Positions 21,996 to 39,053 of a stretch of 40,605 nt of DNA are shown here, in pieces. The position numbers and the translations under genes were made by a program. The DNA lies in the IMG/VR virus record IMGVR_UViG_2734482545_000011, one strand, 5' to 3'. This DNA comes from a virus. Its lineage: Duplodnaviria > Heunggongvirae > Uroviricota > Caudoviricetes. Positions within the stretch are counted from its first letter, which is position 1; the number at the start of each line of letters is the position of its first letter. A model generated the notes under the pieces. That model was not told the DNA's origin and searched no databases. It saw only the letters and a list, made by a program, of their open reading frames with translations.

Positions 21996-22424
21996 TCAGG
22001 GTTTAAAATCCAGCACCCCATTTTGAAATACTTTATATACTTCCGGCGAAGGGGGGGCAGGTATATCAGCATTCTTTATCGCATTCATCGCTTCACGACA
22101 TAAATCGAGGTCTCCACTTTCTCTTTTAACCTCCAGTAGAAGGCCATTCGGGGCCATATGCATTCTCAGTGTACACTCTTTTCCTGAATACTTACTCGCA
22201 TCCCCGAACTGTTTTTCGATGGCGCTCTTGATTTGATGGGCATACAGACGGATATCCTCACTAACATCAGAAGTACGTTCAGATGAACTCACATACTGTG
22301 TCTCTATTGCTTTATCGGAGTAATATGATGTACGGTCATGATAATTTGTCGATACAGCATCAGTGCACCCGATAATAATCCCACTAATAATCAACGTAAG
22401 AATTGATGCGCTACGAAAACCCAT
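21996..22424 (-). CDS. outer-membrane lipoprotein with TolA domain III-like C-terminal domain (paralog 2)
   Basis: 142 aa; lipobox IIGC; C-terminus YAHQIKSAIEKQFGDASKYSGKECTLRMHMAPNGLLLEVKRESGDLDLCREAMNAIKNADIPAPPSPEVYKVFQNGVLDFKP closely matches my recollection of the E. coli TolA C-terminal domain (...GKTCTLRIKLAPDG...GGDPALCQAALAAAKLAKIPKPPSQAVYEVFKNAPLDFKP). Confidence 0.65.
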   Translation of the reverse strand: MGFRSASILTLIISGIIIGCTDAVSTNYHDRTSYYSDKAIETQYVSSSERTSDVSEDIRLYAHQIKSAIEKQFGDASKYSGKECTLRMHMAPNGLLLEVKRESGDLDLCREAMNAIKNADIPAPPSPEVYKVFQNGVLDFKP

Positions 22425-22483: not shown

Positions 22484-23014
22484 ACAGCGAATCAGATCAA
22501 ATAAAACGCACATTTGTTAACATTTACACAAAGTCTGCGTGGGATATTCTGAAAGAATATCCATAATGTGGAGAGAATCTATTGAAGTGCATGGTGCCGG
22601 GTGCCTCCCGGTGAACAAAATGTTCGTGATACCTGTCGGCGACAGAAAAGGTTAATGGTATCACCCCACCGCACAGGGGGATTCACCATGCAGGAGTTTT
22701 CTTAGCAAACTCACTGCGCGCCCGGCAACTCCCAACCACATAAAATGCGGAGTTTGTGGCATTTATGCATATAACTCGCAGGAATTATCTTAAAAAACTG
22801 ATGTCGATCCGGATTAAAAAGAAGCAGGTCATCATCAGATGACTGGAAAAAAGGAAAACAAAAAATACTCATCATACAGTTTTGATTGCAGGGATGAGCC
22901 TGCTATGCACAATATGCAGAATATAAGCAAGATAAAAATATGCAGGCATATTATTTCGGATCTTGTTATTAACACAACCTTTTTAATAATCATTTGGCAT
23001 ACAATAAACCAGCC

Positions 23015-24983: not shown

Positions 24984-25178
24984 GCCCCACATAGCATGAA
25001 CAAACACTACATATCAAATAGCTGGTACAAGGATAGAAATACGACACTTATTATTAAAAACGATTAGATAAATTACATTTTAATGTTATGCAAAAGTTCT
25101 TTTTTATCATAACATTTCAATAAAAGCATTACAGATGCAATCATCCCGTCATCATCAATTATTTAAGGTGGTTAAACA

Positions 25179-25277
25179 TGGAAAATAACAAGTTCGCACA
25201 TCTCGCTCCTTTTTTATCCGTAATCCTTTTCGCTTGTTGTTTTATATGGGCATTATTTTTATAAAGTAGCCACATGA
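25179..25277 (+). CDS. small hydrophobic peptide ORF (32 aa)
   Basis: AAGGTGG Shine-Dalgarno 6 nt before ATG; MENNKFAHLAPFLSVILFACCFIWALFYKVAT, one predicted TM helix; in an AT-rich intergenic stretch. Below the track cutoff; coordinates approximate. Confidence 0.3.
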
Positions 25278-25672
25278 TAAGTTGCTGGAATCATATTTCC
25301 CACTCAAGTCATTAACATTTGATAAGATATATCTAAAAGGACGCCTTTACATTATTTATGCGTATATAATTTATTTATATACACAGTAAAGGTATCCTGG
25401 GAAAATATTTATCGTTAAAAAATACATCATAAATAATTAAGCTGAAATTTCAGAACACAACTAATACACACAATAAGGTTCAGTAACAGTAATCTATGTG
25501 GACTACATCGAGATTTTTTGATTAAACTTTAATAACTTATTCCTAACACACAGAATGCATAAACTAAAAGTAAAACAAATAGTTATACGAAAAACAACCA
25601 TATTTATTCTATCTTCTCCTCTAATCAACATATCAATTATGTGTTTCATAACAGCTTGACATAACCCTCCAA

Positions 25673-25695
25673 AAGATGCATTTTTAATGCATGTT
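25673..25695 (+). promoter_or_regulatory. NsrR-type 11-1-11 inverted repeat overlapping the predicted promoter of the YeaR-like gene
   Basis: AAGATGCATTT-T-TAATGCATGTT (ATGCAT ... ATGCAT), downstream of a perfect TTGACA at 25656-25661 and about 16 nt before the GGAGGAGGTGG RBS. Confidence 0.4.
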
Positions 25696-25710
25696 TTGGA
25701 GGAGGTGGTT

Positions 25711-26049
25711 ATGACACACAAGAGAATTCCTAAAGATTGGGTAATCAAACGCTCAACTCCGTTCTTCACAAAAGAGAACGTACCTTCAGCGTTATTAACA
25801 CATCATAATACAGCAGCAGGTGTTTTTGGGCAGTTGTGCGTAATGGAAGGCACTGTAACATATTATGGTTTTACTGATGAGAATGCTACTGAACCGGAGA
25901 TAAAAGTAGTCATTAATGCTGGCGCTTTTGCAACAAGCCCACCACAATACTGGCACCGTGTTGAACTAAGCGATGATGCTCAGTTTAATATTAACTTTTG
26001 GGTCGCTCCAGACTTTTCGGGCGAAAAAGTCTATAGCACCAAAAAATAG
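25711..26049 (+). CDS. YeaR-like DUF1971 protein
   Basis: 112 aa from the internal ATG with a very strong GGAGGAGGTGG RBS; pattern RSTPFF...H...GV.G.L.VMEG.V.YYGF.DE...EPE...AG.FA..PPQ.WH.VE...DA.FNI.F.VAP resembles E. coli YeaR as I recall it. Confidence 0.5.
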   Translation: MTHKRIPKDWVIKRSTPFFTKENVPSALLTHHNTAAGVFGQLCVMEGTVTYYGFTDENATEPEIKVVINAGAFATSPPQYWHRVELSDDAQFNINFWVAPDFSGEKVYSTKK

Positions 26050-26077
26050 ATGATCATATTAAAAATGCTTTAACAGT

Positions 26078-26116
26078 CAGACCCGGCAGGGCTATCCCCG
26101 ACGGGTCTCATTTTTG
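26078..26116 (+). terminator. intrinsic terminator after the YeaR-like gene
   Basis: AGACCCG-(16 nt loop)-CGGGTCT followed by CATTTTTG, about 30 nt after the stop codon. Confidence 0.5.
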
Positions 26117-26669: not shown

Positions 26670-27671
26670 TTAGTAATCTGCGTGTTTCGCACTTTTCAGA
26701 AATGCTTTCATATTTTCATTAGGTCGCTCAATTTCGAAGTTACTTCCATATAACTCTTGTAATTTTGGCCATAACTTACTTAATAACCCTCTCCTGCGAT
26801 AAAATGGATGTATCCAAACGGTAGATAGGTACGGAGAATTTGCATTTGAATTGTTTATTGTGACCAGCCCAACTAAACATTGTCGATAACCACTATTATC
26901 CATTGATTGTATTTCTTCGACGAATGGATACGCGATTACATCAGTCCAACCATGATCGGTTGTATCCCATTGCATTCCGTCATGACATTCCTTCGACTGA
27001 TAGCGGCGTAAAGCTACACACGCGAGCTTTTGCCAATCTGGAGAATTAATTGTGATCTCTTCATCGTATGACGCGCCTATTGGAGCGGGTATTGGTCTGA
27101 TTAATCCAGCATGGCATTCATCATAGAACTTCATGTTTCCCTCAGAAACGTTGTGTACGTTGGGTTGCTCCATGTGTGCGCCATTCAAAAATAGCTCTGA
27201 TAGTAGTGTATCTACACTGTAATCTTTATTGATTATTGTCGGCTTAGAGTTTTTCTTATTAAGGCCGCGAGTAACGATTTTTTGATCAATGTTAACAACA
27301 TGGAATAATCCGTCGGGGAGGCTAGCGAACCACGATGGGGCATCGGACCAGAATAGCATGCCTTTTGTACTTCTTAAGAGTTTAATTAAGTTAATACAAG
27401 CTTCTTCACTAGTCTTGCCGTTGATGCGAAGTATGTTAGGACTAAAGTAATATTCATCCATATCAGGGAATGCAGCTTCGCAAAACTCCTGTACATAATT
27501 TAGCACCTGGATTCTACAGAGATCATCATAGCTGGTAATAACTAAGGGGGTATCTTCATTACTATTATGATTATCAATAATGCAATCTATAGCGAGACTT
27601 ACTGCTTTGCGTATCACTTCAGTTGAATCTAACGACTCTAAAAATTTTGTCTTTCGTGTGCGAATATCCAT
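26670..27671 (-). CDS. hypothetical protein, gene B of the AT-rich two-gene operon
   Basis: 333-aa ORF starting 15 nt after the gene A stop (AGGT RBS); AT-rich codon usage; no family recognised by eye. C-terminal ...VWIHPFYRRRGLLSKLW... only weakly recalls a GNAT motif A. Confidence 0.7.
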   Translation of the reverse strand: MDIRTRKTKFLESLDSTEVIRKAVSLAIDCIIDNHNSNEDTPLVITSYDDLCRIQVLNYVQEFCEAAFPDMDEYYFSPNILRINGKTSEEACINLIKLLRSTKGMLFWSDAPSWFASLPDGLFHVVNIDQKIVTRGLNKKNSKPTIINKDYSVDTLLSELFLNGAHMEQPNVHNVSEGNMKFYDECHAGLIRPIPAPIGASYDEEITINSPDWQKLACVALRRYQSKECHDGMQWDTTDHGWTDVIAYPFVEEIQSMDNSGYRQCLVGLVTINNSNANSPYLSTVWIHPFYRRRGLLSKLWPKLQELYGSNFEIERPNENMKAFLKSAKHADY

Positions 27672-27686
27672 GTATGACCTGCGCTA

Positions 27687-28709
27687 TTAAAATTCATGAA
27701 TGAACGGTTTGTCATCTGGTTGCAAAATGGTGGTTTTATTCGTTGCTACATTTAAACTGTTGTAGAGCATAATTGCCAGGTTCGATGCATTTTCAATCAG
27801 CGTTTCAAGATCCTGGTCTGTAATCACTACGAGGTTCCCTTCTTTATCCTTTCCACCACGATGCACTAAGTGATTTCGATTGAGGGTTGCCAATTCAATA
27901 GCTTCTATCGGACAGTCTTTTTGTACTTTTATATCGAATGTAGCTTCATAGCGGTCGATTACCTTTTTAGTGCTATGCCAGCTTGCACTGATCAAGTGTT
28001 CCTTGATTGACCTGATTAGCTCTCCCCTAATTTTCTCGATGGGTTCACCCTTGAAAGGCAACGCAGCAATATCTTTGCTTACTTTAAATTCAGTCTTACC
28101 TTTTTCTATACAATTGGCTATGTAGACATCATCTTTCTCTATAGAATTAATGAATAGCTCAACATAAAGCGTTTCCAAAGCTGTAATAACATTCGTGTAG
28201 AGCAAACTAAGCAAGTGGTTTTTTTGCTGTTGTTCAGTTTTATCTTTTGCAAGTTTTTTTATTTTATCGATATTATCAATGAATTTTAAATACGGATTAC
28301 CGGAAGACGTTACAGCGTCGTAGATATCATCATCGTACCAATCATCTATATTATTTGAGTTTCCAGACCAGTCAAAACATTGTGTTTGTAATTCATCTAC
28401 TAATTCCTCAATATACTCAGATTTAACATATTGACCGAAGATGGATTGTAGTTCTTCGCTCGCATCATACGGCCCGCCATATATGTAAGCATAGCCACCT
28501 TCTCTACTTTCATACGGACAAGCATTTGCCGGATCTTCAAAGTTTTCAAAGAACCAGTTTTTCATTACTTCGAGTTGATCTTTTTTGCTTATGTATTTTA
28601 AAGATTTTAGTGGAACTTTCTTTCCATTAACCTCGAAAACAATTTTCACGATGTAACGCTCCCTTGTATCAATTGCGCAACTATTATACCACAGCGAAAT
28701 ACAGGGCAT
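27687..28709 (-). CDS. hypothetical protein, gene A of the AT-rich two-gene operon (C-terminal HEPN-like R-N-x-x-x-H motif)
   Basis: Track ORF 27687-28778; start placed at the ATG with a perfect TAAGGAGG 6 nt upstream (MPCISLWYNSCAIDTRERYIVKIVFEVNGKK...), 340 aa; C-terminal segment EAIELATLNRNHLVHRGG contains R-N-H-L-V-H (Rx4H). Confidence 0.7.
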   Translation of the reverse strand: MPCISLWYNSCAIDTRERYIVKIVFEVNGKKVPLKSLKYISKKDQLEVMKNWFFENFEDPANACPYESREGGYAYIYGGPYDASEELQSIFGQYVKSEYIEELVDELQTQCFDWSGNSNNIDDWYDDDIYDAVTSSGNPYLKFIDNIDKIKKLAKDKTEQQQKNHLLSLLYTNVITALETLYVELFINSIEKDDVYIANCIEKGKTEFKVSKDIAALPFKGEPIEKIRGELIRSIKEHLISASWHSTKKVIDRYEATFDIKVQKDCPIEAIELATLNRNHLVHRGGKDKEGNLVVITDQDLETLIENASNLAIMLYNSLNVATNKTTILQPDDKPFIHEF

Positions 28710-28747
28710 AACCTGCCTCCTTAAACTAACATACCATGAGCCAGCAA

Positions 28748-28773
28748 TGTCCGCTATTGGCACAAAGCGGACA
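28748..28773 (-). promoter_or_regulatory. 8-bp inverted repeat upstream of gene A (possible operator)
   Basis: TGTCCGCT - 10 bp - AGCGGACA, about 40 bp upstream of the gene A start codon; no U-run follows, so not a terminator. Confidence 0.3.
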
Positions 28774-28847
28774 ACCACGCTAGCTCTCCCCTGTGCCAGA
28801 AAAATGTCAATTTACATATGAACTAATGCTCTTTGATCTAGTAACGT

Positions 28848-38852: not shown

Positions 38853-39053
38853 ATGGAGGTGTTCATGTATAAAATTACCGCCACTATTGAAAAGGAAGGT
38901 GGCACTCCTACTAACTGGACAAGATATTCAAAATCTAAACTAACGAAATCAGAATGCGAAAAAATGCTCTCAGGTAAAAAAGAAGCAGGCGTTTCCAGAG
39001 AGCAGAAAGTAAAACTGATAAATTTTAATTGCGAGAAACTTCAGTCCTCGTGA
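38853..39053 (+). CDS. ydaC: YdaC-like protein
   Basis: MEVFMYKITATIEKEGGTPTNWTRYSKSKLTKSECEKMLSGKKEAGVSREQKVKLINFNCEKLQSS; alternative start at the second ATG (38865) after GGAGGT. Confidence 0.55.
   Translation: MEVFMYKITATIEKEGGTPTNWTRYSKSKLTKSECEKMLSGKKEAGVSREQKVKLINFNCEKLQSS

Follow-up and report, generated by a model that had tools for sequence, protein, structure and literature searches.

A Rac-type prophage of Escherichia coli carries an STM1808-type DUF1971 gene behind a candidate NsrR operator

The subject of this report is a small gene cassette in IMG/VR record IMGVR_UViG_2734482545_000011, a stretch of viral DNA 40,605 nucleotides (nt) in length that is referred to below as the window and that is a Rac-type lambdoid prophage of Escherichia coli. 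The cassette encodes a 112-residue DUF1971 protein. Located between its -35 hexamer and its ribosome-binding site is a near-perfect 11-1-11 inverted repeat, AAGATGCATTT-T-TAATGCATGTT (in full, AAGATGCATTTTTAATGCATGTT), which an earlier note on this DNA had likened to the binding site of the repressor NsrR. When scored with a matrix of published sites, the repeat ranks second only to the operator of ytfE. We consider it probable, at roughly 70%, that host NsrR represses the cassette through this operator and that nitric oxide (NO) induces it. The observation made in the earlier note is confirmed, and its NsrR interpretation is supported with the refinements given below.

The operator and the predicted promoter

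The operator was scored with a symmetrized log-odds matrix derived from the 27 NsrR 11-1-11 sites of E. coli CFT073 listed in Table 4 of Mehta et al. 2015 (PMC5320621), from which one duplicate was dropped to leave 26 distinct sequences. Its score is 26.7 bits with the window background and 27.8 bits with a uniform background. The published training sites span 11-30 bits, and only that of ytfE lies above the operator, at 30.1 bits (29.4 bits in a leave-one-out calculation). For reference, hmp and yeaR score 19.4 and 22.2 bits, respectively, on the same matrix. The exact tail probability per position ranges from 4e-11 (uniform background) to 1.3e-9 (30% GC background), and the number of sites expected in the window at the score of the operator is 1e-6 to 5e-5. 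The runner-up site in the 40.6-kb window reaches only 12.2 bits, and the operator is single-copy there. An IscR or phage CI-type operator was also considered, by eye only, and was rejected on the grounds that the site is single-copy and does not resemble the IscR motifs.

The operator and that of ytfE (AAGATGCATTTAAAATGCATCTT), the top two scorers on the matrix, are identical at 20 of 23 positions. Their left half-sites, AAGATGCATTT, are the same, and the differences are confined to the spacer, position 13 (T instead of A), and position 21 (G instead of C). Whereas the ytfE operator precedes the gene for an iron-sulfur repair protein, that in the window precedes the DUF1971 gene.

The features of the cassette are listed in Table 1. 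The plus-strand gene with its strong ribosome-binding site and the perfect TTGACA followed by the inverted repeat are as the earlier note described them, and TTGACA is invariant in 36 of 36 prophage copies. The operator begins 11 nt past TTGACA and ends 15 nt before the ATG, a spacing by which it would cover any promoter that uses this -35; the earlier note had put it over the likely -10 element and transcription start. There is, however, no canonical -10 hexamer. The candidate, CATTTT, matches the consensus at only three of six positions, and a consensus sigma-70 scan demanding at least four of six matches per hexamer called no promoter here. CATTTT is homologous to TATTTT or TATATT at the matching operator positions in orthologous genes, and it was on the basis of the geometry shared by these orthologues, namely a -35 hexamer followed after 17-18 nt by [C/T]AT[T/A]TT, that the -10 was placed there. 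Neither it nor the transcription start is evident from the sequence of the window, and we infer both. Whatever the exact -10, the operator fills the gap between the -35 and the ribosome-binding site, and bound NsrR would therefore exclude RNA polymerase. Such exclusion is how NsrR is understood to act at hmp and ytfE.

The terminator, which had been described as clean, is less tidy than that word implies. A hairpin with a run of five T residues does follow the gene (stem, 26079-26085 and 26102-26108; TTTTT, 26111-26115), and it folds at -19.4 kcal/mol with z = -2.5. The stem, however, is imperfect and contains an internal bulged stem, and a simple terminator scan did not call the hairpin, the loop of which exceeds 8 nt. 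The hairpin and its T-run are kept after the stop codon, with compensatory stem changes, in alleles having different downstream DNA. The promoter was retained as a predicted feature on account of its cross-species geometry, and the terminator on account of its fold and these compensatory changes.

The following sequence of events is proposed. In a lysogen, the host iron-sulfur repressor NsrR would bind to the 23-bp operator. Since the operator lies between the -35 and the start of a short 5′ untranslated region and holds the sole plausible -10, bound NsrR would occlude RNA polymerase. Nitrosylation of the NsrR cluster by NO would release the repressor and allow the promoter to fire, and the strong ribosome-binding site would then support synthesis of the 112-residue, cupin-like protein. 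The hairpin terminator would end the transcript before it ran antisense into the neighboring cargo. Binding of NsrR in vivo, induction by NO, and a protective function in E. coli are predictions made from sequence.

Table 1. Features of the DUF1971 cassette, in window coordinates
Feature	Position	Strand	Basis
AT-rich non-coding leader	25000..25655		composition profile, 26-31% GC
-35 hexamer TTGACA (6/6)	25656..25661	+	direct reading
Extended inverted repeat, arms matching 16/18	25666..25702		direct reading; 7 bp past the operator on each side
NsrR-type 11-1-11 operator	25673..25695		matrix match; conserved in orthologues
Predicted -10 hexamer CATTTT (3/6; A2 and T6 kept)	25679..25684	+	inside left operator half, 17-nt spacing from TTGACA
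Shine-Dalgarno GGAGGAGG	25698..25705	+	direct reading; 5 nt before ATG at 25711
Coding sequence, 112 residues, STM1808-type DUF1971 protein	25711..26049 (stop codon included)	+	Pfam, PDB, and orthologue comparison
Intrinsic-terminator-like hairpin AGACCCG...CGGGTCT, then CA-TTTTT	26079..26115	+	RNA fold

The encoded protein and its relatives

The earlier note had taken the gene product for a YeaR-like DUF1971 protein, and the family assignment holds. The match to Pfam DUF1971 (PF09313) scores 92 bits against a cut-off of 23.1 (E = 2.3e-26), with residues 14-94 covering profile positions 1-80 of 80. The likeness to YeaR is far weaker than that to the STM1808 subfamily. The best match among solved structures is PDB 3dl3, a Vibrio protein of 119 residues deposited as tellurite resistance protein B (E = 3.5e-59, ∼80% identity), whereas E. 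coli YeaR (PDB 3bb6) is far more distant (E = 1.6e-24, 43% identity). A database search placed the protein in a tight subfamily, with 73-82% identity to members from Salmonella, Klebsiella, Raoultella, Kluyvera, Citrobacter, Vibrio, Aliivibrio, Shewanella, and others. With the Salmonella member, the gene for which comes straight behind dsbB in the order fadR-nhaB-dsbB, the protein aligns over 112 of 112 residues at 79% identity and without gaps. Given that dsbB is STM1807 (PMC4143323), the Salmonella gene that follows it is STM1808.

In an alignment of the subfamily from 13 genera, the mean column identity is 82%, and the columns before 100 are free of gaps. Invariant positions are the N-terminal M-[TS]-H, His 31, His 32, Cys 43, and His 82. 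From the work of Karlinsey et al. in 2012 (Mol Microbiol), STM1808 is said to be a zinc protein in which His 32 and His 82 are needed for zinc binding and NO resistance. The invariance of the N-terminal motif at 25711 favors that start codon over the in-frame ATG at 25687. The longer, 120-residue reading frame given in database entries P0001 and P0002 was rejected because its start falls within the operator and is not preceded by a ribosome-binding site, and because all orthologues begin at the M-[ST]-H that aligns with 25711.

Orthologous loci were collected by a scan of one genome per species, which yielded 80 loci encoding close relatives. All but one of the enterobacterial orthologues carry an NsrR site of 20-30 bits centered 27-39 nt upstream of the start codon; the exception, locus L012, scores 12.2 bits with an apparent 1-nt register shift in its best-scoring match. 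This footprint, which lends independent support to the NsrR interpretation, is displayed by genera that include Kluyvera, Leclercia, Enterobacter, Pantoea, Buttiauxella, Silvania, Pseudescherichia, Citrobacter, Klebsiella, Raoultella, Yokenella, Phytobacter, and Salmonella. Above 17 bits, distinct sites number 52, with scores of 18-30 bits; 50 come from Enterobacteriaceae and two from Photobacterium, and most of the Vibrio, Aliivibrio, and Shewanella orthologues among the 80 loci have no such NsrR site. In upstream alignments, a -35-like hexamer (TTGACA in the prophage, TTTACA in Kluyvera, TTGCCT in Citrobacter, and TTGACG in Klebsiella) precedes by 17-18 nt the [C/T]AT[T/A]TT element, which occupies operator positions 7-12. 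The Kluyvera gene is chromosomal and neighbors a fimbrial gene and the genes for a molybdopterin oxidoreductase and a deoxynucleoside kinase. The orthologues of the Salmonella, Citrobacter, and Klebsiella groups come after the dsbB terminator.

Note that a Fur-box-like element (for example, GATAATGAGATTCATTATC), with 2-6 mismatches to the 19-bp consensus, was observed ∼76 nt upstream of the start codon and just 5′ of the -35 in loci L006-L027 (Kluyvera, Leclercia, Enterobacter, Pantoea, Buttiauxella, Silvania, and Pseudescherichia) and in the Photobacterium loci L058 and L078. Neither the prophage copy nor the Salmonella, Citrobacter, and Klebsiella loci have it. Its presence suggests dual control of STM1808-type genes by Fur and NsrR in the genera that bear it.

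The prophage gene and Salmonella STM1808 have much in common. Both proteins contain the invariant histidine and cysteine residues listed above, both genes are monocistronic, and STM1808 likewise has an 11-1-11 NsrR site, AAGGTGTATATTAAATACACCTT, which scores 25.6 bits and lies 39 nt upstream of the ATG. They differ in that STM1808 has a fixed place on the chromosome, immediately behind the dsbB terminator, whereas a lambdoid prophage carries the gene in the window as mobile cargo. The cassette has an AT-rich leader unrelated to that of STM1808 and a -35 that matches TTGACA perfectly, and the distance from its operator to the ATG is shorter at 27 nt. Citing Karlinsey et al. 2012, PMC7527575 places STM1808 in the NsrR regulon and ascribes to it a role in virulence. 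The protein is reported to support Salmonella growth under nitrosative stress and in mice.

The E. coli yeaR-yoaG operon (DUF1971 and DUF1869) shares with the cassette both the DUF1971 fold and an NsrR 11-1-11 site at the promoter, and yeaR is known to be NsrR-regulated (PMC5320621). The operon is repressed by NsrR and activated by NarL. In the cassette, by contrast, there is no yoaG-like partner, the terminator follows directly after the gene, and the operator is much closer to the consensus than is the yeaR site. NarL/NarP heptamers (TACYYMT) were absent from both strands of 25301-25720, no useful FNR site (TTGAT-N4-ATCAA) was found in the same interval, and no useful Fur site (19-mer consensus) was found in 25401-25720, where the best match has 6-8 mismatches and is misplaced. 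With these consensus sites not found upstream, a yeaR-like NarL/FNR architecture and a Kluyvera-like Fur architecture were both rejected for the prophage copy. Identity of the gene as a YeaR orthologue was likewise rejected in light of the 43% identity, the lack of any plus-strand reading frame before the terminator that could be a yoaG partner, and the lack of NarL heptamers. As judged by these comparisons, the gene is STM1808-type and not a YeaR orthologue.

Some RefSeq copies of the protein carry the name TehB family protein. The match to the NCBIfam TehB equivalog model (NF008992) reaches 49 bits, far short of the cut-off of 303, and is confined to model positions 11-106 of 289, which correspond to the N-terminal non-catalytic domain. 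TehB of the Haemophilus type (PDB 3m70) combines a DUF1971 N-terminal domain with an S-adenosylmethionine (SAM)-dependent methyltransferase; the 112-residue protein shares the former (E = 5e-11) and does not have the latter. An identity as a SAM-dependent TehB methyltransferase was rejected accordingly, and by this measure the RefSeq label is misleading.

The label nevertheless raises the question of whether the protein serves a role unrelated to NO, for example tolerance to tellurite or to another metal or oxyanion, with NsrR control being incidental. The fold relatives 3dl3 and 3m70 are both named tellurite resistance proteins, and the Fur-box-like element of the Kluyvera-type orthologues hints at a link to metals. 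The poor TehB score and the absence of the methyltransferase domain speak against such a role, as do the conservation of the NsrR site across the Enterobacteriaceae and the NO-stress and virulence phenotype reported for STM1808 (cited in PMC7527575). So does the orthologue in Aliivibrio fischeri (locus L003, 1-4336), which lies immediately downstream of the NO-reductase locus norR-norV-norW at a gap of ∼830 bp. A role apart from NO is, in our estimation, very unlikely. The A. fischeri orthologue is without an E. coli-type NsrR site, and the NO link in the Vibrionaceae may run via a regulator other than NsrR.

Operator variation and the extended palindrome

By three queries, the cassette was found in 466, 458, and 453 of 5426 complete E. 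coli genomes, or ∼8%, with the carriers including poultry, livestock, and human isolates. The adjacent DUF1367 (nin) module is present in 1332 of the 5426 genomes, of which 453 also have the cassette. The difference between these counts marks the cassette as optional cargo.

Among 28 prophage haplotypes, the operator and the 5′ untranslated region form the most variable stretch, with 17 variable sites in the 50 nt from 25661 to 25710. Elsewhere in 24986-26035 the variable sites number 0-6 per 25 nt, with almost no variation in the coding region or the AT-rich leader. Six of the operator alleles are listed in Table 2. All alleles score 17.7-28.6 bits and fall within the score range of the published sites. 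For each, a p value was taken as the fraction of random variants with an equal number of changes that score as well. Alleles C, D, F, and H differ from allele A at degenerate motif positions only (p = 0.01-0.04 each, the tests being non-independent). Most alleles retain AATGCAT as the core of the right half-site, and in D and G this core is AATACAT, a permitted NsrR variant. These data fit, but do not prove, a retained NsrR control of variable strength.

Table 2. Operator alleles of the prophage cassette
Allele	Sequence	Score (bits)
A (window)	AAGATGCATTTTTAATGCATGTT	27.8
B	AACACGCATTTATAATGCATGTT	20.7
C	AAGGTGCATTTATAATGCATGTT	26.6
D	AAGGTGCATTTATAATACATGTT	25.7
E	AAGGAGCATTCATAATGCATGTT	17.7
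F	AAGATGCATTTTTAATGCATCTT	28.6

Several observations weigh against control by NsrR. The promoter scan made no call, and the CATTTT hexamer departs from the consensus, as described above. The 68-bp promoter region of the window is rare, its exact sequence being found in just 5 of 458 carrier genomes. Of these carriers, 358 lie in a band of 90-95% identity to that region, which is probably filled by allele B, the commonest allele in the IMG/VR sample. In allele B, a conserved position of the left half-site has changed from T to C, and together with alleles E and G this allele is indistinguishable from random variants with an equal number of changes. The variation hot spot could signify relaxed rather than tuned constraint. 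Finally, the very AT-rich leader suggests that silencing by H-NS could dominate expression.

Much of this would favor the view that the operator came along with the gene as a mere relic and that the cassette is effectively NsrR-independent, being either constitutive or H-NS-silenced, in which case the NsrR match would count for little in the physiology of E. coli. The degraded left half-site of the majority allele, the hot spot itself, the missing canonical -10, and the 26-31% GC content of the upstream 700 bp are all in keeping with it. Even the weakest allele, on the other hand, lies well inside the 11-30 bits of the published sites, among which are hmp and yeaR with the scores given above. 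The restriction of changes in alleles C, D, F, and H to degenerate positions and the intact right core in most alleles likewise run counter to a relic, and the site has been kept at the matching position in ∼50 enterobacterial species. A relic operator is therefore regarded as unlikely, though it is the most credible of the alternatives to NsrR control considered here. Selection for different NsrR affinities in different hosts is a further reading of the 17 variable sites in 50 nt, although a highly improbable one.

The inverted repeat proved to be longer than the 11-1-11 element of the earlier note, which is present as stated but is embedded in the extended repeat of Table 1. The extension takes in the Shine-Dalgarno sequence, with CCTCC on the left complementary to GGAGG on the right. 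As RNA, the extended repeat is predicted to fold at -26.8 kcal/mol (z = -5.8) with GGAGG paired. A transcript begun at the cassette's own promoter would not contain the left arm, and thus the structure would matter only for read-through transcripts or as DNA.

It could be argued from this fold that the palindrome acts mainly as a nucleic-acid structure, with CCTCC masking the Shine-Dalgarno sequence in read-through transcripts such that only those begun at the cassette's own promoter are translated, and that its likeness to an NsrR site is secondary. In agreement with such an argument, the arms remain complementary in both allele A and allele B, which are distinguished by a paired change (CCTCCAAAA/TTTTGGAGG versus CCTCAAAAA/TTTTTGAGG), and orthologues of the Citrobacter and Salmonella clades carry palindromes of 39-45 bp with compensatory changes. 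Quasi-palindromes are, however, hot spots for template-switch mutation, which can mimic compensatory change. The central 23 bp fit the NsrR matrix at p ∼1e-10, which is unexpected for a generic hairpin. Moreover, the Kluyvera-type orthologues keep the NsrR core without the extension (their 12-nt flanks show a mean complementarity of 5.0 of 12, versus 4.0 in controls), and the Salmonella extension stops short of the Shine-Dalgarno sequence. A chiefly structural role thus has only a slim chance of being correct, and it could coexist with NsrR control instead of replacing it. The extended palindrome is best considered a minor rival, or an add-on, to regulation by NsrR.

The longer palindromes were observed in the Salmonella, Citrobacter, and Yokenella loci (L002, L028, L029, L031, L034, L045, L049, L051, L053, and L062), where the 23-bp NsrR core is contained within a near-perfect palindrome of 39-45 bp. 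Those of Salmonella and Citrobacter are unlike that of the window in sequence. The outer arms vary between species by compensatory pairs, as in GGCATTTAT/ATAAATGCC, GGCATCTAT/ATAGATGCC, GGCACCTAT/ATAGGTGCC, and GTGATTAA/TTAATCAC. Extended protein contact, DNA or RNA structure, or template-switch mutagenesis could account for them.

Prophage setting and biological implications

A stretch of 901 bp around the cassette is 100% identical to the DNA of E. coli LD39-1, in which the counterpart lies within a prophage that adjoins ttcA and contains intR, xisR, recET, kilR, and sieB. As the earlier note had proposed, the gene does reside inside a prophage. It is the only plus-strand gene among minus-strand phage genes and is antisense to them. 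On one flank are the minus-strand nin/Q genes, encoding a Q-like antiterminator (DUF1133), YbcO, and DUF1367, and on the other are, also on the minus strand, a two-gene variable cargo module, DUF977, and DnaC-like replication genes. The ∼700 bp upstream of the cassette are non-coding. This leader accompanies the DUF1971 gene in all prophage alleles and is co-linear with 92-100% identity in 36 IMG/VR and Shigella loci. In these 36 copies the left flank (nin region) is always co-linear, whereas the right junction varies and falls at 26046, ∼26423, or 26547. The gene is also present in the isolated E. coli phages vB_EcoS-666R9, vB_EcoS-673R7, and vB_EcoS-613R10, where it is annotated only as a cytoplasmic protein. 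A divergent minus-strand target for the operator was rejected, for the sole minus-strand reading frame there (25503-25769, 88 residues) is without support and the nearest real minus-strand gene begins 780 bp away.

The opposite orientation of the cassette to the flanking phage genes, its AT-rich leader, its terminator hairpin kept with compensatory changes, and its patchy presence lead us to regard it as probably a phage moron, that is, self-contained cargo in a variable slot between the replication and the nin/Q genes. Morons wired to host regulators are well known and include lambda bor and lom, Gifsy-2 sodCI under PhoPQ, and stx1 under Fur. The cassette resembles these in its predicted autonomous promoter and terminator, its predicted expression from a repressed prophage, its position at a module junction, and its patchy distribution. 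It differs from them in that the predicted regulator is the NO sensor NsrR.

Several other features of the window deserve mention. The two-gene cargo module beside the cassette (26670-28778, minus strand) encodes a 333-residue protein with a weak C-terminal GNAT match (E = 9e-4) and a 363-residue protein with a weak match to a HEPN/RES N-terminal domain (E = 2e-4), both of which are below the cut-off. A PADLOC scan of these two proteins and the DUF1971 protein returned no matches. In another Rac-like prophage, that of APEC E14033, the slot holds the IteAS anti-phage defense system, and the two-gene module may be an uncharacterized defense or toxin module. A protein with a TolA C-terminal domain (Pfam TolA, E = 2e-23) is encoded at 21996-22424 on the minus strand between the Q gene and the lysis genes. 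Homologues of it are found in locus L001 as well, and its gene is likely to be another cargo gene. An Rfam scan of the whole window returned only two small RNAs, both on the minus strand and above their gathering scores, and nothing within the 800-bp leader. These are STnc100 (86.6 bits, 22535-22721), located between the lysis and Q regions, and the antitoxin RalA (225 bits, 38871-39049), located near ralR and the integrase gene.

One further consequence of the operator has been considered. Upon prophage induction, the amplified operator copies might titrate scarce NsrR and thereby de-repress host hmp, ytfE, and hcp during lytic growth. In PMC5320621, titration of NsrR by multicopy sites is cited as an established laboratory phenomenon; it is not known from a phage. 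We view such an effect as highly improbable.

In the literature searched, the coverage of which was incomplete, nothing joins DUF1971 with NsrR, and DUF1971 is mentioned only incidentally. The same literature contains no description of a phage-borne, NsrR-controlled gene, and those papers dealing with both NsrR and prophages concern Stx phages or other matters. The cassette involves no new mechanism, inasmuch as both the connection of NsrR with DUF1971 genes and the concept of the moron were known before. It would add a phage-borne member, in E. coli and Shigella, to the NsrR-repressed DUF1971 genes and to the morons wired to host regulators.

The net effect of control by NsrR would be lysogenic conversion, by which ∼8% of E. 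coli strains would gain an STM1808-type gene pre-wired to the host NO regulon. The core genome of E. coli K-12 is not known to contain such a gene. If the proposal is correct, Rac-like temperate phages spread an NO-stress gene among E. coli and Shigella, and an otherwise silent prophage would express that gene only under nitrosative stress, such as the host encounters in an inflamed gut, inside macrophages, or when respiring nitrate or nitrite. The natural operator alleles, with scores from 17.7 to 28.6 bits, could be used to study the relationship between NsrR affinity and the threshold of induction. The cassette would then represent a clean example of lysogenic conversion through a host stress regulon.

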